From positions 1 through 28,171 of the forward strand of contig CBDBIJ010000085.1 of assembly GCA_965205655.1 (NCBI GenBank): a DNA stretch of 28,171 nt. The letters run 5' to 3'. Under the pieces are notes generated by a model that saw only the letters and a list, made by a program, of their open reading frames with translations, did not search any database and had not been told where the DNA came from. The translations under genes were made by a program, and so were the position numbers. This document shows, one piece after another, positions 6,805 to 23,354 of the stretch (within the stretch, counting starts at the first letter, position 1; every line of letters starts with the position of its first letter). Source of the stretch: Candidatus Latescibacterota bacterium (GTDB lineage: Bacteria > Latescibacterota > UBA2968 > UBA8231).

Positions 6805-8005
6805 ATGCTCGTACTCGAACAGATCGCGCGCCAGGAAACGCGGCGAATCGTCGGGCTCATGAGCGGCACGTCGGCTGACGCAATCGATGCCGTGCTCATC
6901 GACATCACCGGCTCCGGGGAGTCGACGCAGTTCGACGTGCTGGCCCACACGACGACGCAACTCGACGCCGACCTTCAAAGCGACCTGTTTCAGCTGTTTC
7001 TTCCGGACGCGCTCGTCGACGATCTCTGCCGGGTAAATTTTCTGTTCGGCCAGGCGCTGGCGGAGGCGGCCCTGGCCGCTATTGCCGAGGCCGGCCTGGA
7101 GCCGGAGACGGTGGACCTCATCGGATCGCACGGCCAGACGGTGCGCCATATGCCCGGGGCGGAACCGCCCTCTACGCTGCAAATCGGCGACCCCTCCGTC
7201 ATCGCCAATGCTACCGGCATCACGACGGTCGCCGATTTTCGGCCTGCGGACATGGCCGTCGGTGGCGAAGGAGCGCCCCTGGTGCCGCTCGTCGACTATC
7301 TGCTGTTCGCGCATGCGAATCGGGGTCGCCTCATGCTGAACATCGGCGGCATTGCCAACGTGACGGTGCTGCCCGCCGATGCGGAGCTGGAGGCTGTGTC
7401 CGCCTTCGATCTGGGTCCGGGAAACATGCTCCTGGACGGCGCCGTGTCCTTTCTCACCGGGGGATCCGAGCGCTTCGATCGGGACGGTCGGCGGGCGCTG
7501 GCCGGCACCGCAGACGAAGCGTGGGTGGCGCGGCTCATGAAGCACGAATTCGTACGGAGGCAGCCGCCCAAGTCGACTGGTCGTGAGGAGTTTGGCACGG
7601 CCTACCTCGCCGAGCTTATCGCAGAGATGGAACTTTCCGCGGATGATCTGCTCGCCACGTTGACAGCCTTTACGGCGGGCGCAATCGTATACGGCATCCA
7701 GAATTTTCGTGGAGGCGCCGGTGGAGGAGTTGTGGGTCAGCGGCGGCGGCGTTCACAACGCCTGTCTCATGCAACTGCTGGGGAAGGCGTTGCCGCAGAC
7801 GAGGGTGAGTCCCATCGATGCGCTCGGCGTCTCGGCTGACGCCAAGGAAGCGCTCTGTTTCGCGGTCCTGGCAAACGAGACGGCGCTCGGCCAATGTGGC
7901 AACCTACCGGGGGCGACGGGGGCGCGCCGTCCCGCGATTCTAGGTGTGATTGCGCCGGCGAACGCCGCCGGGGAGCCGGAAAAACGTGAGGAATCGACCA
8001 CATGA
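6805..8005 (+). CDS. anmK: Anhydro-N-acetylmuramic acid kinase, frameshifted at about 7704-7707
   Basis: GLMSGTSADAID, IGSHGQTV, DFRPADMAVGGEGAPLVP, NIGGIAN, PPKSTGRE; C-terminal VSGGGVHN and KEALCFAVLA are in another frame. Removing one T from TTTT at 7704-7707 restores one ORF. Confidence 0.92.
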
Positions 8006-10915
8006 AGACACACGACTTCGAACTCGTTGACAAGCGCGAGTTAGCCGAGCTGAACTCCAGCGGCGAGCTCTATCGGCACCGCACCGGAGCACAGCTGCTG
8101 TCACTGGTCAACGACGACGAGAACAAGGTGTTCGGCATCAGCTTCAAGACGCCGCCGTCCGATTCCACCGGCATTGCCCACATCCTCGAACACTCGGTGC
8201 TGTGCGGGTCGGCCAAATACCCGGTGAAGGAGCCGTTCGTCGAGCTTCTCAAGGGCTCGCTCAAGACCTTCCTCAACGCCTTCACCTATCCGGACCGGAC
8301 GTGCTATCCGGTGGCGAGCCAGAATGTCCAGGATTTCTACAACCTGGGTGGATGTCTACCTCGACGCCGTCTTCCACCCGCGCCTGACGCCTCAGGTTCT
8401 ACAGCAGGAGGGATGGCACTTCGAACTCGAGCGGGATGATGGTGATCTGGCGTACAAAGGTGTCGTGTTCAATGAGATGAAAGGGGCGTACTCCTCACCC
8501 GACTCGGTGATGATGGAGTTCATCCAGCAGTCGCTGTTTCCCGACAACACCTACGGCTTCGACTCGGGAGGCAATCCCGCGGAAATTCCGAACCTGACGT
8601 GGGAGCAGTTCGAAGCCTTTCACCGAACGCTCTACCACCCTGCGAACGCCCGCATCTACTTCTGCGGCGACGACGATCCGCAGAAGCGGTTCGAGCTCCT
8701 GGAGGAGTACCTCGGAGAGTATACAGCTCAGCAGGTGGACGCCTCCATCGCCATACAACCCCGCTTCGAGGCGCCGAGGAAGTGGGACAAGACATATGCC
8801 GCAGGGGATGACGCCCCGCAGGGCAACAAGAGCATGGTGGCGGTGAACTGGCTGCTCGACGAGGAGATCGATACGGACACGGGTCTGGCATTGCAAATCC
8901 TCGACTACATCCTCACGGGAACGCCGGCAGCGCCGCTGCGCAAAGCCCTCATCGACTCGGGGCTGGGAGAGGACCTGGCCGGCTGCGGCATGGAAGCGGA
9001 GCTCAAACAGTACTTCTACTCCACCGGCCTGAAGGGGGTGGCGGCCGGCAACGAGGAGTCGGTGGAGGACCTCGTCGTCACCGCGCTGAAAGGACTAGCG
9101 GAAAGCGGCATCGATCCGGACACGATCGCCGCGGCGCTGAACACGACCGAATTCCGCCTGAGGGAGAACAACACCGGATCCTATCCGCGTGGACTCATTC
9201 TCATGCTGCGGGCTCTGACGAACTGGCTCTACGGTCGGGACCCTTTCGACGCCCTGTCCTTTGAGCGTTCCCTGCAAAGCGTTAAAGATCGCGTTGCCGC
9301 CGGCGATGGTTACTTCGAAGAGCTGATTCGTCACCACATCCTCGACAACCCCCATCGCACGACCGTCTTCCTCAGACCTGACACCGAGCAGGCCCGGTGG
9401 GAGGAGGAGGCGGAAAGGGGGCGTCTCGAGACGGCGCGCACCAGCATGACGCCGGCCGACCTCGACGCCATCATCACTCAAACAGAGGAGCTGAGGAGGA
9501 GTCAGGAGACGCCCGATTCAGCTGAAGCCCTGGCGACGCTACCGCGTCTGAAGCTCAGCGATTTGGACCCGGAGATCCGCCGAATTCCGAGCGAAACGAG
9601 CCTGCAGCACGGATCGACCGTCTACTATCACGACCTGTTCACCAACGGCATCGTCTATGCCGACGTGGGATTCGATCTGCGCGCACTGCCTCAGGAGCTG
9701 CTGCCGTACCTGCCTTTGTTCGGGCGGGCGCTCCTCGAGATCGGCACTGAAAAGGAGGACTTCGTCAAGCTCACGCAGCGGATCGGATCGCGCACCGGCG
9801 GCATCTGGCCGCACGCATTCGTGTCGTCGCAACGCGGCAACCCGGCGGCGGTGGCTCGCTTCTTTCTGCGGGGCAAGGCCATGGTCGACCAAGTCGATGA
9901 GATGCTCGGCATCATGCAGGAAGTGCTGCTTATGGTGAAGCTGGACAACAAGGAGCGTTTTCTGCAGATGGCCCTCGAGGAGAAGGCCGGGGAAGAGGCG
10001 GGTCTGGTTCCCGGCGGCCATGCAGTCGTTTCGCTGCGGCTGCGGTCGCAGTTCGACGAGGCGGCGTGGATTTCGGAGCAGATGGAAGGAGTGAGCTACC
10101 TATTCTTTCTGCGCCAGCTGGTGGAGGAGATAGAGCGGGATTGGGATGGCGTTCTGTCGAAGCTGGAGGAGGTTCGCCGCCTGCTGGTGAACGGCAACAC
10201 GCTGCTGTGCAATCTCACCCTGGCGGAAAAGGACCGCGCTGCAACCGAGCCGCTTCTGAACCAGCTGATCGCCTCGCTGCCCGCAGCCCCGCTTCCCCAG
10301 GGCACCTGGGAGCCTCGCTACGATCCCGGAAACGAGGGACTCGTCATTCCCGCTGCTATCAACTACGTCGCCAAGGCGACGAACATCTACGATCTCGGCT
10401 ACGAGTTCAGCGGCTCGGTGGGGGTCATCACTCGCTACCTGCGCAACACCTGGCTCTGGGACCGGGTGCGGGTGCAGGGCGGCGCTTATGGTGCGTTCTG
10501 CTCATTCGACCAGTTTTCGGGCGTGCTCTCCTTCGCTTCGTACCGGGATCCGAATCTGGAGTCGACTCTCGATGTCTACGACAACGCCGCCGGTTTCCTG
10601 GCGGATCTGGAGCTGAGCGACGACGAGCTGACGAAGGCCATCATCGGCACGATCGGCGAGCTCGACTCGTATCAGCTGCCCGACGCAAAGGGCACCACGT
10701 CGCTGGTGCGCCAGCTTACCGGCGTGACCGACGAATTCCGCCAGGAGATACGGGATGCCGTCCTCGAAACGACGGCGGCCGACTTCAGGAGTTTCGCTCA
10801 GGTTCTGGAGCGCGCGAAAGAGGCGGGAAACGTCGTGGTGATGGGCGGGCGGGAGACTCTGCAGAAAGCGAGGCTCGAACCGAAAGGGGCGCTGAAACTC
10901 ACCGCTGTGCTGTGA
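8002..10915 (+). CDS. M16C insulinase-family metallopeptidase (presequence protease PreP/Cym1-like), frameshifted at about 8346-8348
   Basis: HILEH zinc motif, LNAFTYPDRTCYPVAS, GVVFNEMKG, RVQGGAYG, SYRDPN. Removing one G from GGG at 8346-8348 gives DFYNLVDVYLDAVF. Confidence 0.92.
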
Positions 10916-15876: not shown

Positions 15877-15952
15877 TGGTGGCTCCTCGCGGAATCGAAC
15901 CGCGGACACAGGGATTTTCAGTCCCCTGCTCTACCTACTGAGCTAAAGAGCC
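15877..15952 (-). tRNA. tRNA-Phe (GAA)
   Basis: Reverse complement GGCTCTTTAGCTCAGTAGGTAGAGCAGGGGACTGAAAATCCCTGTGTCCGCGGTTCGATTCCGCGAGGAGCCACCA: 76 nt cloverleaf, GAA anticodon, TTCGA T-loop, encoded CCA. Confidence 0.98.
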
Positions 15953-16653: not shown

Positions 16654-16923
16654 TCAGGCGGTAGCAGTTTCCACAACGCCGTTTTCGACCAACCAGGCCT
16701 CCACTTCTTCGCCGCTCACGTCAGCCAGCATCTGGCCGTTGACCTCGACACACGGGGACAGGGGCTGGCCGCTCTTCTGAACCATCTCGGCGTAGTTGTC
16801 GGGATTGTTGATGATGTCCCGGTCTTCGTACTCCAACCCGTACTTCTGAAATACATCGCGGACGCCGCCGCTCCAACCGCATACAGGTTTGAGGTAAGCG
16901 ACGATGTTTGGTGTGTCAGCCAT
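16654..16923 (-). CDS. Monothiol glutaredoxin-like protein (CGWS)
   Basis: YLKPVCGWS active site, YEDRDI, KSGQPLSPCVEVNG cis-Pro region; AAGGA RBS. Confidence 0.88.
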   Translation of the reverse strand: MADTPNIVAYLKPVCGWSGGVRDVFQKYGLEYEDRDIINNPDNYAEMVQKSGQPLSPCVEVNGQMLADVSGEEVEAWLVENGVVETATA

Positions 16924-16957
16924 CGGTGATGTCCTTTCTTTCAGTGAGTTGCAGGCT

Positions 16958-16985
16958 AATATAACAAGCCGTATTTACGTGTCAA
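16958..16985 (-). promoter_or_regulatory. Sigma70 promoter for the glutaredoxin
   Basis: TTGACA-N16-TATATT with an extended -10 TGn. Confidence 0.6.
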
Positions 16986-17010
16986 GCCAAGAGTTACGTG
17001 CCATTTTCGA

Positions 17011-17039
17011 TTGACGAGAAACCGGCTCCGCCGTACATT
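17011..17039 (+). promoter_or_regulatory. Sigma70 promoter, probably the original murA promoter
   Basis: TTGACG-N17-TACATT, divergent from the glutaredoxin promoter; it would lie about 75 nt upstream of murA before the transposon inserted. Confidence 0.65.
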
Positions 17040-17081
17040 GGGATCCCCGCCCTACCAAACGGGATCCCCGCCCCACCAAAC
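17040..17081 (+). repeat. 21-bp tandem direct repeat, two copies
   Basis: GGGATCCCCGCCCTACCAAAC / GGGATCCCCGCCCCACCAAAC, 1 mismatch. Confidence 0.9.
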
Positions 17082-17100
17082 CTACTGACAATAGACTACG

Positions 17101-17108
17101 AATAGAAA
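17101..17108 (+). repeat. 8-bp target-site duplication, left copy (AATAGAAA)
   Basis: Identical to 22071-22078; abuts the terminal inverted repeat. Confidence 0.92.
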
Positions 17109-17132
17109 GGGAATTACATACGTGAGTAGACA
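17109..17132 (+). repeat. IS1595 terminal inverted repeat, distal to the transposase
   Basis: GGGAATTACATACGTGAGTAGACA. Confidence 0.92.
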
Positions 17133-17148
17133 GGAAGGGATTGAAGAA

Positions 17149-17343
17149 ATGGCCGGCGGAAAACTGAAACCAGGATGGCGGGAGGGAATCGAGCGGTTAA
17201 GGAATGGGGACCGGCTACTCGGGTTTGCCGAAGCCGATGGTTCCGGGTCGTTCGAGATCATCGATCCTTTTGAGGATCTCCGAAACCGTTTCCTCAAGAA
17301 GTGTAATGCGCTCAGAAAGGCCGCCGGGCTCCCACCCGTCTAA
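17149..17343 (+). CDS. Small hypothetical protein A1 (GGKLKPGWRE motif), antisense overlap with 17215-17454
   Basis: ATG at 17149 with GGAAGG upstream; motif shared with 20469-20699 through mostly synonymous DNA differences. Confidence 0.6.
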   Translation: MAGGKLKPGWREGIERLRNGDRLLGFAEADGSGSFEIIDPFEDLRNRFLKKCNALRKAAGLPPV

Positions 17344-17454
17344 GCGCATCAACTGCTCCATTTTTCGGACTGCCGCTTCGGTCTGAATTATGTCATTGCC
17401 GGGGCTGTTCAGAAACGCCTGAAGCCTCTGTATTTCCTTATCGAACTGTGCCAT
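17215..17454 (-). CDS. Small hypothetical coiled-coil protein B1 (79 aa)
   Basis: GGAGG RBS 7 nt before ATG 17454; heptad pattern LSERITLLEETVSEILKRIDDLE. Confidence 0.7.
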   Translation of the reverse strand: MAQFDKEIQRLQAFLNSPGNDIIQTEAAVRKMEQLMRLDGWEPGGLSERITLLEETVSEILKRIDDLERPGTIGFGKPE

Positions 17455-17489
17455 CGTGATTTCCTCCAAGGGTTAGACGGTGGCGTTTA

Positions 17490-17521
17490 GAGGGGGAACC
17501 TGTAGCCGCAGGCTCCCCCTC
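17490..17521 (-). other. 13-bp GC-rich stem-loop between cargo genes
   Basis: GAGGGGGAACCTG/CAGGCTCCCCCTC; the single mismatch becomes G-U on the minus strand; no U-tract. Confidence 0.6.
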
Positions 17522-17528
17522 GGTTCAT

Positions 17529-17705
17529 TCACTCTGTTTCGTCTGGTTCTTCTCCCTCGTCCTGATACGTCCATTCTGGCGGTTTCGTAGTCATCAGGAT
17601 ACGGGCGATGTTCTCCGGAGTGTCTGGGATAGGCTCCGGCATCTGGCGTTCGACAGGGCGACCTACGGGGCGCTTCTCGGGCTTGTCCTTCTGTTCCTCG
17701 TTCAT
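17529..17705 (-). CDS. 58-aa hypothetical protein (MNEEQKDKPEKRPVGRPVERQMPEPIPDTPENIARILMTTKPPEWTYQDEGEEPDETE)
   Basis: Not in the ORF track. ATG overlaps the MTase-HNH stop (ATGA) with GGAGG upstream. The PEPIPDTPENIAR motif resembles small ORFs I recall next to IS1595 transposases (unverified). Confidence 0.7.
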   Translation of the reverse strand: MNEEQKDKPEKRPVGRPVERQMPEPIPDTPENIARILMTTKPPEWTYQDEGEEPDETE

Positions 17706-18180
17706 GCTACCTCCGATATGCGTTGACGTTTGAGGGCGGCAATCAGATAGGCTTGATCGCGGTCTCCCTTGGTGCTGTTACAGGCTCCGCAAAGTAGCTG
17801 AAGGTTTTCCGGGTGATCTGTTCCGCCTTGCGAGCGTGGCGTGATATGGTCAATGGTGAAATTACGGAACGGGAAAGGAATCCGGCAACCGGTGCACCGG
17901 CCCTCTTGGCGCCCGAACAGCGTGTGCCTCTGGGTCCGGTAGTGAGGTATCGGTCCTTGGTCGCTGCGCCTGGGTACATCTTCCCGATGGTTCAGCTTGA
18001 ACAGGCCGCCGATCTCTGACTCCGCCCGCTGGATGACCAGCGTGGCCGCCAGCTCAGACAGATCGATGCCCACCCATTGGCGTTCTGCTTTTTCTGCGGC
18101 AATGCAGGCCGTGGCGCACCCGCAGAACGGATCGAGTACTTGTAAAGCCCTGGGTTTCTGGACACTGATTTGGCGGATGG

Positions 18181-19089
18181 TCAGGCCGCCTTGGACAACT
18201 CCTGCTGGAAGCTCCGGCGCACCTGGTTTGGCGTCTGATAGTTGTGTCGCTCGAGGAGCCACTTCTCGTTGTAGACTCTCTTGAATTCGAGCAGGGCAAG
18301 ACGGAGCTCTTCGACCGTGGCAAAGTATCGGACCCACAGGAGATTCTCCTTGAGGGTGCGGATGAATCGCTCGGAGCAGCCATTGCCCTCCGGGGCACGC
18401 ACGAAGCTGGGCGACGACTCGATGCCCAGGAAGTCGATCTGTTTCTGGAAGTGGTCGGACATGTACGCAGAGCCATGATCGTGGCGCAGCTGCAGCCCCC
18501 CGGCGATACCCTTGTCGCCGCCGCCGAAGTGTTCGCGGACTCCCTGGTGGATCGGCTCCAGGGCCTCGAAACGGTCGCCTGTGGCCGCTGCATGAATGCC
18601 GATGCACTCCGAGCTGCAGTGGTCGACAGCCACGAAGACCGTAGCTGTGCCTTCGCCGGTGGTCACGGTGGTGGTCAAGTCGGTTCCCCACATCTGGTCT
18701 GGTCGCTCGGTGGTGATCGTCCCGTCGTGTGCTTGCGGGCCCCTTGGCTGGCCGGCGCGTTGCGGCACCTGCAGGCCGTGCTCGCGCATCACACGGCGTA
18801 CGCGTTCCTTCGAGGTGCGGATGTCCTGCGCCCGCAGCTGGGCCCACATCTTGCGGTAGCCTTCCCCGTGAAAGGGGGACGCCTTCAGCAACTCGCGAAT
18901 CTTCTCAGCTAGCTCATCGTCGGTACACGGCCCTTGGGGACCTCGTTTCTTCCGCTCAAGACGCTCCTCCGGACGCAGAGCCGCCCGACGCCGATGCTCG
19001 TGGACGGTGGAGCGAGGAAACTGCCAGACCCGACACACACGCTGCAGCCTGTACGGCCGCTTCCTGGAGGGCGACTGGGTCTGGCTCAT
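18181..19089 (-). CDS. IS3-family transposase OrfB (rve DDE domain)
   Basis: GYRKMWA, RVRRVMREHGL, WGTD, HDHGSAY, NGCSERFIRTLKE, YN..HNYQTP. Confidence 0.95.
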   Translation of the reverse strand: MSQTQSPSRKRPYRLQRVCRVWQFPRSTVHEHRRRAALRPEERLERKKRGPQGPCTDDELAEKIRELLKASPFHGEGYRKMWAQLRAQDIRTSKERVRRVMREHGLQVPQRAGQPRGPQAHDGTITTERPDQMWGTDLTTTVTTGEGTATVFVAVDHCSSECIGIHAAATGDRFEALEPIHQGVREHFGGGDKGIAGGLQLRHDHGSAYMSDHFQKQIDFLGIESSPSFVRAPEGNGCSERFIRTLKENLLWVRYFATVEELRLALLEFKRVYNEKWLLERHNYQTPNQVRRSFQQELSKAA

Positions 19090-19415
19090 CGCTTCGACCT
19101 CCGGGATGCCAAAGGGAGTCCATCCTCCAGGCGATGGATCTTGGACTCCAGCAACTCGTTGTCCATCGTCAGATCCCCCACCTTCGCTTTCAGGCGGGCG
19201 ATCTGTTCATCCCGCTCATCACGGGTACGGCTGTGCAGAGCTGACTCACCCCCACCCAGGAACTGCTCGCGCCACTCACTCAGCGTGGCTGCCATCACAC
19301 CCAACTCCCGGGACAGGACCTCCAGGTCCTCCCCACGCAGCAGGCGCAACACCGCCTCCTGCTTTCGACGAGCGGAGAATCGGCCGACCCGAACACCCTT
19401 CTCCTGCTTAGTCAT
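19086..19415 (-). CDS. IS3-family transposase OrfA (HTH plus leucine zipper)
   Basis: RFSARRKQEAVLRLLRGE..LSRELGV..LSEWR; IARLKAKVGDLTMDNELL; AGGAG RBS before ATG 19415; ATGA overlap with orfB. Confidence 0.9.
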   Translation of the reverse strand: MTKQEKGVRVGRFSARRKQEAVLRLLRGEDLEVLSRELGVMAATLSEWREQFLGGGESALHSRTRDERDEQIARLKAKVGDLTMDNELLESKIHRLEDGLPLASRRSKR

Positions 19416-20468
19416 CTCGAACACTCCTTTCAGGTCCATGTGGACCCTCTAATGTGTCCAAGAAAACCCTGGGGCGCTGGATACTACATCTCCGGGATTG
19501 CTGCTGGACTGGATGATGCGGTTAAGAAGAGCTAGCGGTTTCTGCGTGGGATACCCGACACGTTCCTTGCTGTTGAGTACCGGTACCACGTCCATCCAAA
19601 TATCTTGGAGCGGAACGCCGGGCATCTCATCGAGATATCGTTTATACCGAGGCACGCGCCCAGGTGCGGTCTGCATAATGCGCCCGACATCTATCAACTC
19701 CTGCATCTTCTCGCGGGAGTAACGCCAATAGCGCGTCACTCCCATGACCTCGTATTGTGGGTTTCCCTTCGCGGCCCCGCCGGGGCCGGTAAGGTTGTCA
19801 AGCGTGTATCTCCGACCTGTTTCTTCCTCCTCGTAGCGATAAAAGGTACGGACGTAATCAGCATCGTAATCGGTGTAGATTGGATTCCAAGTCCATGAGT
19901 CTCCTGTTGTGTAGTAAAGGAGAACATCGTGGATTCTGCCGTGTTGGCGGCGGCCCTGCTTCGTATCGCTATGGGCGCTGGTGCGCTTCCAAATGATTTC
20001 ACTACGAAACCTGTTATCTCCAAAGACGGCATCCATTTCCATCTTCAAGTAGTGACCCGCAGTTAGATCACAATGCAGGTAGATAGATCCTGTATCCTTC
20101 AAGATGCGCCGCATCTCCAGCAGGCGCACACCCATCATGATGAGATAGCTCATCATGTCCTTGCCGTGAGCCAGGCCGGCCGCATCAATGATGCCGTGCA
20201 AGGCAGGCTCCTGTTCTGCAAGTTCGCCGTGCCACGCTTCGTCCAAGTCGTTCAGACTCCAGGTATCCTTGAACGCGGCACCGGCGGCCTGCGAGCCTAT
20301 GGGCGCTGAGTAGTTCTTGTTGCTGTTGAACGGGGGGTCGAGGTAAATGAGATCGACGGACTCACTGTTCATGCCGCGCATGATGTGCAGATTGTCGCCG
20401 GTCCAGATGGTCCGGTTCTTCCAGTTCGGCTTTGCCATCAGGAAATCAGCTCCCTATATTCAGGGATC

Positions 20469-20699
20469 ATGAATAAGACAAGTCCAGAACATTGCGGCGG
20501 GAGACTCAAGCCCGGCTGGAAGGAAAGTATACGGGAAAAGCTGGAGGCCGAAGATAGGCCGACTACGCGGTCGGTAGATCAGGCCCCTGACTGGTATACC
20601 GGCTCTGTTGCCTGGGATCTACTTTCTTTCGATGAGCGAATCGACCTTTGCTCCGAGCAATTCAAAATTTGCATGGAGCGATTTGAGAGACGCGGATAG
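20469..20699 (+). CDS. Small hypothetical protein A2 (GGRLKPGWKE motif), antisense overlap with 20619-20864
   Basis: ATG 20469 preceded by AGGGA; apparent paralogue of 17149-17343. Confidence 0.6.
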   Translation: MNKTSPEHCGGRLKPGWKESIREKLEAEDRPTTRSVDQAPDWYTGSVAWDLLSFDERIDLCSEQFKICMERFERRG

Positions 20700-20864
20700 G
20701 TCTTCGATCCTCTTGTCCTGAATAGTCCGATTCAGTTCCAGAAGCACCTTCGCCACCTCGGTTTTGTCGCTTGACAGCGTCACTCCATGCAAGTGCTTGC
20801 GCAGATATATCCGCAAAACTTCCAGATCTTTTTCCTCCTCGGCTTTATATTGATCTTCAGTCAT
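20619..20864 (-). CDS. Small hypothetical coiled-coil protein B2 (81 aa)
   Basis: AAGGA RBS; heptad pattern KRIEDLSASLKSLHANFELLGAKVDSL. Confidence 0.65.
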   Translation of the reverse strand: MTEDQYKAEEEKDLEVLRIYLRKHLHGVTLSSDKTEVAKVLLELNRTIQDKRIEDLSASLKSLHANFELLGAKVDSLIERK

Positions 20865-20889
20865 GGAAACCTATCCTTTCTATGGCTAA

Positions 20890-20963
20890 GCCTGTTCGCG
20901 GGCCTGATACCCGTGAAAGGCAAAGGTAGTGGAACCCGACCGGACAATCCGGCCAGATTCCAC
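20890..20963. other. Two adjacent stem-loops in the transposase-cargo spacer (candidate structured RNA)
   Basis: GCCT-g-TTCGCGGG/CCCGTGAA-AGGC (20890-20921) and GTGGAA..CCGGA/TCCGG..TTCCAC (20929-20963). Confidence 0.45.
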
Positions 20964-21026
20964 CAAGTGGCTGCAACAGCGGGCTATACCATCTACAGTT
21001 AGTCGCTGCGTGTCAACATAATCGTC

Positions 21027-21974
21027 TCACGTGGTAGTGGCGATCAGCTCCCGATACTGTAGCCTTTTCCCAACCAGCCCAGAGGCGGTGGCGATCATCT
21101 GGTCGATAGTGTCGCGGTCTCGGATGTTGTGGCGTCCGGCGAACTCGCTGACGTACCGCTGTAAGTGTTTCGGAGACATCCGGTGATACGTCCCGTGAAA
21201 TCCCCGCTTCATCATGCTCCAGAAGCTTTCCATTCCGTTCACGTGCGCCATGCCCCGGACATACTCGCCGATGGAATGCTTGACGCTTTCGTGCTTGGCT
21301 ACGTGGTCGAAATTGGCGTAGGCCACCGCGTCGTCGCTGTACATCGTACCGCCCTTCTGGACGTGCTGCTTGGCGAATCCCTGCAAGGTATCGGCCTTGG
21401 TATCGGGCACGACCTCGGCGGCGATCTGGCCGGTCTCTCGATCCTTGGCACCCGCTACGGCCGTTTTTCCTACAGTGCCCCGTCCGGCATACAGCTTCTG
21501 GTCCGGGTGCTTATTCGACTCCTTTCCGCCGAAGAACGCCTCGTCAACCTCGACGGCGTTCCCGTTCAGGCCCGTTCCCTTTTCCCACGTCTGGCGGATA
21601 CGGTGAGCCATATGCCAAGCGGATTTCTGGGTCAGGCCAACGTCCCGGTGCAGCTTCATGCTGGAAACGCCTTTGAGGTTGGTGTTCATCAGGAAGATGG
21701 CGAGCGCCCATTTCTGAAATCCGATCTTGGAATCGGCCATAACGGTCCCGGTGCGAACACTGAAATACTTCCGGCAGGAGCGGCAATGGTAGGGCATGGT
21801 CGGATGCTTGGCACCCGTCTGGACGTTATCGGAACCACAGTGGGCGCAGGTTACTCCGTTCGGCCATCTGACTTCGGCGAACCACTTATGGGCGGCCTTG
21901 TCGTCGGGGAACATTTCGATGATTTTCGTGAGTGTTAAGCCCTTGCGGTGGTTTTTTCCGGGTGCGTTTGCCAT
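21027..21974 (-). CDS. IS1595-family transposase (Zn ribbon, HTH, ISXO2-like DDE domain)
   Basis: RWPNGVTCAHCGS..CRSC..FSVRTGT, KSAWHMAHRIR, VEVDEAFFGG, YSDD..Y, HVNGMESFWSMMKRG, YVSEFAGRHN. Confidence 0.96.
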   Translation of the reverse strand: MANAPGKNHRKGLTLTKIIEMFPDDKAAHKWFAEVRWPNGVTCAHCGSDNVQTGAKHPTMPYHCRSCRKYFSVRTGTVMADSKIGFQKWALAIFLMNTNLKGVSSMKLHRDVGLTQKSAWHMAHRIRQTWEKGTGLNGNAVEVDEAFFGGKESNKHPDQKLYAGRGTVGKTAVAGAKDRETGQIAAEVVPDTKADTLQGFAKQHVQKGGTMYSDDAVAYANFDHVAKHESVKHSIGEYVRGMAHVNGMESFWSMMKRGFHGTYHRMSPKHLQRYVSEFAGRHNIRDRDTIDQMIATASGLVGKRLQYRELIATTT

Positions 21975-22011
21975 GATTCCGTCTCTCTTTTACCTGATGA
22001 ATTATGATATA

Positions 22012-22040
22012 AAGATAGACAGAAAAGGCCGGAAAGTCAA
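22012..22040 (-). promoter_or_regulatory. Transposase promoter
   Basis: TTGACT-N17-TATCTT just inside the inverted repeat, facing the transposase. Confidence 0.6.
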
Positions 22041-22046
22041 GGGATT

Positions 22047-22070
22047 TGTCTACTCACATATATAATTCCC
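22047..22070 (-). repeat. IS1595 terminal inverted repeat, transposase-proximal
   Basis: Reverse complement GGGAATTATATATGTGAGTAGACA; 22/24 identical to 17109-17132. Confidence 0.92.
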
Positions 22071-22078
22071 AATAGAAA
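22071..22078 (+). repeat. 8-bp target-site duplication, right copy (AATAGAAA)
   Basis: Identical to 17101-17108; ends 4 nt before the murA ATG. Confidence 0.92.
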
Positions 22079-22082
22079 GACT

Positions 22083-23354
22083 ATGGCTGCCGAAGAAGTT
22101 CTTTATATCGAAGGCGGGACGAAGCTCACCGGCGAGGGGGAGGCGCAGGGGGCGAAGAACGCGGCGCTGCCGATGATAGCGGCCTCAGTGCTGGCGGAGC
22201 AGGGCCAGACGGTCCTCCACCGAGTGCCGCCGGTGAAGGATGTTCTCGTCGCCCTCGAGATTCTGCGCCAGCTCGGCGCGAAGGTCGACTTCGACGCGGC
22301 CGCCGGGGATCTCGTCATCGATGCCTCCGGGATTCACACGACAGCTCTTCCAGCGGATCTCACCGGTCGCATGCGGGCGTCAATTCTCTTCGTGGGGCCG
22401 CTGCTGAGCCGATTCCGCACGGTTTCCGTCGAGGAAGTCGGCGGCTGCAACATCGGTGAGCGAGCTACCGATTACCACTATCGCGGATTTGCCCGGATGG
22501 GCGCCAAGGTAGAGGGAACGCGGGCGGGCGGATACAGGGTCGAGGCCGAGAAGCTCATCGGAGCGAACATGTACTGTGACCTCCCATCTCACACGGGGGT
22601 CGAGAATCTGGTGATGGCGGCGAGCCTGGCGAAGGGTGAGTCGACGATCGTCAACGCGGCGTCAGATCCCGAGATCGCCGATTTCGCCCAGCTCTTGGGT
22701 AAGATGGGGGCCCAGGTGGAGGGTGTGGGGACGCGAACGGTGCGCATCCGCGGAACCGGCCGTCTGCGCGGCGCCGAACACACGGTCATGTACGACCGCC
22801 TCGATGCGGCCATGCTGATGATGGCCGGTGCCATCACCGGGGGGGACATCGCGCTGAAGGGTGTCAACCGGGCGTATCTCGAGGTGTTTGAAGCGAAACT
22901 GTTGCAGATGGGTGTCGAAATCGACGAAGCCGGCGAGTGGGTGAGCTGTCGCGCGCCAGAATCGCTGTCACCCATCAACGTCGTGTCGACCTACTATCCC
23001 GGTTTTCCGACCGATCTGCAGCCCAGCATCACCGCCCTTGCCTGTATCGCCGAAGGCGACAGCTACATCAGGGAAACGGTTTTCGAAGACCGGTTCGGTC
23101 ACGTGAAGAGCCTGCGGGCGTTCGGGGCCCAGCTGTCGACGGAGAAGGACGCGCTGATAATCGTCCGCGGGCCCGCCAAGCTCCGGGCGACTCGCATCAA
23201 AGCGGACGACATTCGCGCCGGGGCCGCCTGCGTCCTGGCCGGCCTCGCTGCGAGCGGTCGGACGAGCCTCACCAACCTCTACGAACTCGACCGCGGTCAC
23301 CACAGCATCGAAAAGCGGCTTCAGGGCTTGGGAGCGAAGCTCGAGCGTCTATAG
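22083..23354 (+). CDS. murA: UDP-N-acetylglucosamine 1-carboxyvinyltransferase
   Basis: GAKNAALP, MRASIL, GGCNIGER (catalytic Cys), YPGFPTDLQ, ETVFEDRFGH, DIRAGAA, DRGH. Confidence 0.93.
   Translation: MAAEEVLYIEGGTKLTGEGEAQGAKNAALPMIAASVLAEQGQTVLHRVPPVKDVLVALEILRQLGAKVDFDAAAGDLVIDASGIHTTALPADLTGRMRASILFVGPLLSRFRTVSVEEVGGCNIGERATDYHYRGFARMGAKVEGTRAGGYRVEAEKLIGANMYCDLPSHTGVENLVMAASLAKGESTIVNAASDPEIADFAQLLGKMGAQVEGVGTRTVRIRGTGRLRGAEHTVMYDRLDAAMLMMAGAITGGDIALKGVNRAYLEVFEAKLLQMGVEIDEAGEWVSCRAPESLSPINVVSTYYPGFPTDLQPSITALACIAEGDSYIRETVFEDRFGHVKSLRAFGAQLSTEKDALIIVRGPAKLRATRIKADDIRAGAACVLAGLAASGRTSLTNLYELDRGHHSIEKRLQGLGAKLERL

Follow-up and report, generated by a model that had tools for sequence, protein, structure and literature searches.

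An antiparallel, codon-aligned pair of probable small genes associated with insertion sequences of Latescibacterota

When two small open reading frames (ORFs) overlap tail-to-tail on opposite strands of a mobile element, are both of them genes, and what might they do? The question is raised by the stretch of DNA analysed here, the 28,171-nucleotide (nt) contig CBDBIJ010000085.1 from Candidatus Latescibacterota bacterium (hereafter the window), in which a complete element of the insertion sequence (IS) family IS1595 spans positions 17109–22070 and encloses two such arrangements, A1/B1 and A2/B2. An earlier note on this DNA had described them as a duplicated, undescribed two-gene unit carried by IS1595. 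Alignments and substitution patterns indicate that A and B are very probably real small genes, lying tail-to-tail in exact codon register and travelling as one accessory IS cassette in Latescibacterota.

Coding constraint on the A and B frames

The four ORFs had the coordinates and lengths that the note gave them (A1, 64 aa; B1, 79 aa; A2, 76 aa; B2, 81 aa; Table 1), and the overlaps of 129 and 81 bp are both codon-aligned. Gene callers left A1 and A2 uncalled and called B2 as a gene. The ribosome-binding sites proposed for B1 and B2 were found as Shine-Dalgarno sequences, strong for B1 (2% of random ATGs have one as strong) and moderate for B2, as for A1 (6–7%); A2 has none (47%). Strong ones stand upstream of A in the loci L004, L008 and L014.

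An open codon-aligned antisense frame of such length is not unusual (chance 0.2–0.8), because only TTA, CTA and TCA have to be absent. The open frame alone is therefore not evidence, and the evidence for A is the substitution pattern. The motif shared by A1 and A2 (GGKLKPGW and GGRLKPGW) lies outside both overlaps, and its 12 codons show 7 synonymous differences, 3 non-synonymous differences and 2 identical codons. Across loci, the ratio of non-synonymous to synonymous changes (pN/pS) in the N-terminal motif of A was 0.13 (7 loci), or 0.21 in the 5 loci retrieved by B alone. It was lowest in the frame of A, the other five frames giving 0.68–1.97, and none of 2000 column shuffles was as low.

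Inside the overlap, constraint was seen in both frames. At the 13 core codons, codons with an unchanged B residue differed in 11 of 86 comparisons, versus 68 of 131 outside (5 loci, compared pairwise), and the extra alleles were distributed 13/2/7 over the three B codon positions. The core has 16 variant codons, of which 13 change B and 7 change A. The 22 B proteins compared show 14 types of substitution, of which 10 were silent in A versus 5.2 expected (p ~0.007, under a null that ignores the conservative preferences of B itself), whereas just outside the overlap, as a control, 6 of 32 types were silent in the A frame versus 7.4 expected. The A stop is kept in 6/6 loci, as TAA or TAG, although on the B strand these are rare Leu codons: TTA and CTA together account for 4% of Leu codons genome-wide and 14% within the genes of the element. 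The A frame stays open across the heptad insertions of B. Neither conserved nor covarying RNA structure was found in the motif or the overlap core, and the element has no Rfam match. In the available part of PMC4182739, frame -2 is named as automatically protected in antisense overlaps; the A1/B1 overlap is codon-aligned and, by our mapping of the notation, would not be that frame. As far as substitutions can tell, A1 and B1 are two real genes in antiparallel arrangement that had gone unannotated, and more than a product of chance, in agreement with the earlier proposal that selection acts on the protein.

Some observations weaken this conclusion. The loci available as DNA number only 6–7 and are related, so that the statistics rest on non-independent sequences. 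The copy on C99 and the proteins P0003 and P0037 are frameshifted (the last two in their tails), Shine-Dalgarno sequences are weak before A in C99 and A2, and A-compatible codons persist in the locus L009, where the start of A is missing.

The claim of a duplicated module stands for A and not for B. A2 belongs to the A family (a profile built without it gives E 2e-4 per genome; hhalign 96%) and has a longer N-terminus than A1, whereas the match of B2 to the B family is no better than that of a generic coil (19%). B2 has neither the GWEPGG core nor the GF tail, and no relatives of it were found in the 168 Latescibacterota genomes surveyed. To judge from these matches, the A N-terminus occurs twice, each time facing a coiled-coil gene, by old duplication or recombination. 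With the promoter-like site listed in Table 1, A2 would be nearly leaderless. In the metatranscriptome run X1, one 353-nt contig over 20482–20834 (24 differences, 93% alike, depth 4, unstranded and possibly DNA) gives a weak hint of transcription of A2/B2; none of its unstranded contigs covers 16894–17484 (A1/B1), which proves nothing.

The two families and their distribution

A profile built from 5 B sequences retrieved 23 proteins among 6159 candidates. These proteins of 79–113 aa consist of an N-terminal helical hairpin, an LDGWEPGGL core, a coiled coil varying mostly by 7 residues and a C-terminal tail that is predicted to be disordered. The tail, with the consensus (I/M/L)GFGK(S/P)(E/D), has (I/M/L)GF in 21 of the 23 proteins, 14 with I or L and 7 with M at the first position. 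GF tails are rare among IS1595 passengers: 29 loci contained 424 small ORFs, of which 1 has such a tail. Another 19 weak hits of the B profile (E 3e-4 to 0.05) were dropped, none having the core motifs and the 8 inspected being generic coils. G145 has small genes for membrane-anchored coiled coils in tandem (L044, 1129–1968); their C-termini are identical to each other, and they are unrelated to B. The A profiles retrieved 10 proteins among 8000 scored candidates and, in the 50% library, another list of 10, of which 7 were credible. The repeat proteins P0005, P0008 (not opened) and P0010 were rejected as chance matches, as were L001, a polymerase-like ORF, and L021; four weak A-profile hits (L026–L029, L027 being the place of L009) were not used.

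Neither A nor B matched a Pfam, NCBIfam, PHROG or PADLOC family over cut-off, the PADLOC models giving 0 families for A1, B1, A2 and B2. Fold searches with the B model in PDB and BFVD gave nothing at E<=0.001, and PDB sequence searches gave only generic coiled coils for B and none for A. In the ESM Atlas, B had no hit at 0.9 and A no usable hit. No DNA-binding domain was found in A or B, and the sequences and models show no hydrophobic membrane-spanning stretch. None of 10 A/B-family proteins looked up was named, viral contigs, JGI metagenomes, plasmids and phages held nothing real for either, and no description of either family was found in the literature searched, which covers few subscription journals. 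A and B are two new small families, known ingredients newly arranged, and as an antisense-overlapping unit they matched no known family, as the note had supposed.

In the survey of 168 genomes, the A and B profiles matched the same 5, with 6 B loci. Five of these lie in or beside an IS, and five keep both A ends and the register across heptad indels. The earlier attribution to IS1595 applies to 4 of the 6 loci with DNA, but one locus is beside an IS1-family transposase and one has no transposase identified. In G000 (C99), the pair follows a frameshifted IS1595 transposase. The G059 element belongs to the same IS1595 subfamily as that of the window and has identical terminal inverted repeats (TIRs) and other passengers. 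The element that encloses the pair in G021 is another IS1595, which has TIRs and a target-site duplication (TSD) of its own. A relic of the window-type TIR precedes the pair there, and A begins 12 nt after the transposase stop, on the same strand. In G026, the pair is near the IS1-family transposase; no TIRs were found for the C99 and G026 elements. L009, in G002, has an intact B with a weak Shine-Dalgarno sequence and an A frame without start or motif, and the two neighbours scanned there are not transposases.

The relic in G021 (L033, 4990–5013) directly follows the stop of the other IS1595 transposase and supplies the ATG of A; read from its position, it is a trace of cassette capture between IS1595 subfamilies. 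Close IS1595 transposases were found in 43 of the 168 genomes, versus 5 for the pair, and of 29 close-transposase loci read 1.5 kb to either side (passengers further out would not be seen), only that of G059 shows B. Since it occurs in so few genomes, with varied transposases and at 1 of 29 transposase loci, the pair is an occasional, mobile cassette. A deletion derivative was seen in an Opitutia metagenome-assembled genome, of another phylum (L014, 2800–2990), in which the Shine-Dalgarno sequence and first 15 codons of A are joined to the left, transposase end of a window-type IS1595; this is either a transfer or a binning error, and 60 relatives of the Opitutia genome gave no match.

Possible functions of the pair

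We tentatively suggest that B may be a mimic of a Clp docking loop, restrained by the antisense transcript and the peptide of A. B would be the effector, an oligomeric coiled coil presenting its unstructured (I/M/L)GFGK(S/P)(E/D) tail. By imitating the ClpP-docking loop of Clp ATPases, the tail would block or deregulate host Clp proteolysis, the coiled-coil oligomer supplying avidity. A would be the brake: any A transcript would be antisense to B mRNA, and the hairpin upstream of B (17490–17521), a candidate terminator of the A-strand transcript, could end it. The A peptide would also act in its own right, through its conserved ends. At this locus the element leaves no space for an A1 promoter, and A1 would be read from a flanking promoter of the host.

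According to the available parts of PMC8745299 and PMC9035409, Clp ATPases dock through (L/I/V)-G-(F/L), loop mimics displace the ATPases or open ClpP, and avidity matters. An exposed, flexible segment of this kind is found in 14 of the 23 B proteins with I or L, and in 7 more with M. The host has two ClpP genes and a ClpC-like ATPase with the loop GVLGFQKSD, which resembles the B tail. B thereby resembles the IGF loops of Clp ATPases, ADEP and engineered IGF lasso peptides, as far as these sources describe them; unlike them, B has no AAA+ ring, B1 being a 79-aa helical protein, the tail sits at the C-terminus of a coil of 79–113 aa, and docking is a prediction. A predicted complex of 2 B and 1 A scored 0.03, which speaks neither for nor against binding. 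If the tail does dock on ClpP, insertion sequences would be carrying, in B, a genetically encoded equivalent of the Clp deregulators of the ADEP type.

Several points weigh against the docking proposal. B is tail-less with A intact in 2 of 6 loci (L004 and L008, of genomes G059 and G026), B2 is tail-less too, and B can persist without A, since L009 has B without an A start or motif. A motif of three residues is weak evidence, and the tails that begin with M, 7 out of 21, fall outside the motif as written in the available part of PMC8745299, where a linear IGF peptide is also nearly inactive. LG(F/L) occurs in the flexible loop of 7 of 15 A proteins, opposite the K(S/P)(E/D) codons of B, of which it may be a by-product, and is missing in the other 8. 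We consider it quite unlikely that the pair is a mobile addiction or host-control module with docking-like motifs on both strands of one short run of codons, in which B would mimic the Clp loop and the codon-register antisense A would be the antidote both as RNA and as peptide.

Both genes might instead tune transposition or the expression of the element, without Clp, like Ins5B and Ins5C of IS5. We regard this as unlikely. The association of five B loci with IS elements and the start of A just behind the transposase stop in G021 would fit, as would the roughly twofold increase in transposition that the available part of PMC11677980 ascribes to the antisense small proteins of IS5, which likewise lie inside an IS and depend on outside promoters. 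In the same source, however, ins5B and ins5C overlap the transposase gene, whereas A overlaps B and the pair moves between IS types; it is accompanied by unlike transposases (two IS1595 subfamilies and the IS1 family), neither protein has a recognizable DNA-binding domain, and close transposases far outnumber the pair (43 versus 5 of 168 genomes). The general transposition regulator that the note had offered as one option is accordingly improbable.

That the two microproteins form a toxin-antitoxin or anti-phage pair whose target is not Clp is not likely either. Small size, a mobile cassette beside a methyltransferase-HNH passenger and the weak Shine-Dalgarno sequence of the orphan B in L009 would all suit such a pair. 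Type I toxin-antitoxin loci such as txpA/RatA overlap convergently at their 3' ends, and A/B shares with them the tail-to-tail antisense layout and flanking hairpins. Unlike in type I systems, with their small hydrophobic membrane toxin and non-coding antisense antitoxin, the antisense partner A is under coding selection, and instead of a membrane peptide B is a soluble coiled coil; against type II systems stand the convergent, not co-oriented, layout and the lack of any known toxin or antitoxin domain, and the defence and phage models (PADLOC, PHROGs), like Pfam and NCBIfam, gave nothing over cut-off. The pair thus lacks the traits by which toxin-antitoxin systems of types I and II, and Ins5B/C, are defined, yet may function like any of them.

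It is rather doubtful that A and B are real but functionally independent passengers, held together only by shared DNA. The A N-terminus does occur with other tails (A2, P0006, P0009 and P0011), the A tail with another N-terminus (P0038) and B without A (L009), but 5 of 6 B loci keep both ends of A and the register across heptad indels. Finally, that only B is a gene, A being a shadow frame and its motif a signal conserved as DNA or RNA close to the end of the element, is very unlikely: the ease with which an open frame arises by chance, the silence of the gene callers, the start-less A-compatible codons of L009 and the A starts without Shine-Dalgarno sequence in C99 and A2 have to be set against changes that sit on synonymous positions of A both outside and inside the overlap, the lack of covarying RNA structure and of Rfam matches, and a codon-aligned register that would not be the protected -2 frame.

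As in the bacterial antiparallel overlapping genes treated in the available parts of PMC7457138 and PMC4182739, opposite strands of one stretch encode two proteins; unlike these, A/B is codon-aligned with codon-level constraint in both frames and forms a mobile cassette. In the former source, the function of bacterial antisense ORFs and proteins is treated as an open question. A/B is a compact case, in which codon-level selection is visible where the two codon-aligned frames overlap, in each of them, and also in a part of A beyond the overlap; it is therefore directly testable with two peptides of <90 aa, within the limits of a narrow known range and uncultured hosts.

The IS1595 element, its passengers and its surroundings

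The transposase has the zinc-ribbon and ISXO2-like DDE domains of the family (PF12760 and PF12762 over the Pfam cut-off, NF033547 over the NCBIfam cut-off). The 24-nt TIRs are identical at 22 of 24 positions and flanked by an 8-bp TSD, the length of target duplication of the IS1595 family; TIRs with TSD were likewise found for the G059 and G021 elements. Counting from the transposase, hairpins come first, then B2/A2 and a methyltransferase-HNH gene that an IS3-type element has split; ORF C, a further hairpin and B1/A1 follow. As in IS1595 elements with passenger genes (tIS), unrelated passengers follow the transposase, and unlike in these they include an in-register antiparallel pair of no known family.

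Table 1. Positions of the element, the A/B genes and associated features in the window
Feature	Position	Strand	Remark
TSD, 8 bp, left copy	17101..17108		Repeated at 22071-22078
IS1595 TIR, passenger end	17109..17132	+	Same TIR in G059 element
A1, 64 aa	17149..17343	+	GGKLKPGW motif, helix, LGF-bearing loop, helix in overlap, NALRKAAGLPPV end
B1, 79 aa	17215..17454	-	Helical hairpin, LDGWEPGGL turn, coiled coil, IGFGKPE tail
A1/B1 overlap, 129 bp, codon-aligned, antiparallel	17215..17343		A1 stop TAA is B1 Leu38 TTA
GC-rich hairpin upstream of B1	17490..17521		Similar hairpins, same place, in L004 and L008
ORF C, 58 aa	17529..17705	-	Small passenger of separate family
Methyltransferase-HNH passenger, 3' piece	17702..18140	-	HNH domain
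IS3-type element interrupting passenger	18141..19481	-	orfA HTH_Tnp_1, orfB rve; 4-bp TSD
N6/N4 methyltransferase-HNH passenger, 5' piece	19482..20438	-	
Sigma-70-like site (10/12)	20432..20460	+	Ends 8 nt before A2 ATG; 4 sites found, 2.2 expected by chance
A2, 76 aa	20469..20699	+	Diverged A-family member, GGRLKPGW, C-terminus different
B2, 81 aa, coiled-coil ORF	20619..20864	-	Homology to B1 undetectable beyond coil periodicity
Two hairpins between transposase and B2	20890..20963		Second terminator-like on minus strand
IS1595 transposase, 315 aa	21027..21974	-	PF12762, PF12760, NF033547
IS1595 TIR, transposase end	22047..22070	-	
TSD, 8 bp, right copy	22071..22078		4 nt before murA start at 22083

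Stem-loops were present at both copies as the note had described, with folding energies of -25.0 kcal/mol at 17490–17521, -18.7 at ~20890–20921 and -15.2 at 20929–20963. ORF C, which has no Pfam family, carries the motif PIPDTPENIARIL. It was also found at 5 of 29 other IS1595 loci, and its pN/pS of 0.38 shows purifying selection. The methyltransferase-HNH fusion is uninterrupted in contigs from 3 other runs, joined across the insertion point. The IS3-type element has the ends TGT...GGA and has 20 hits in the genome at 98.7–100% identity, a recent burst; on C17 and C58, copies also follow IS1595 transposases directly on the downstream side.

The IS1595 element is inserted between murA, the only one found in the assembly, and its upstream region. 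Two G>A changes set the transposase-end TIR apart from the other copy and give rise to the sequence TATAAT (22061–22066), possibly a new -10 box for murA, with no -35 seen. Outside the other end, at 17011–17081, a promoter-like site (9/12) directed into the element stands before a 21-nt tandem repeat that contains GGGATCCC palindromes. Further away lie a tRNA gene on the minus strand (15880–15952) and, at 8002–10915, a peptidase-like gene with a resemblance to M16, which is apparently split into two ORFs near 8324–8439, possibly by a sequencing frameshift.

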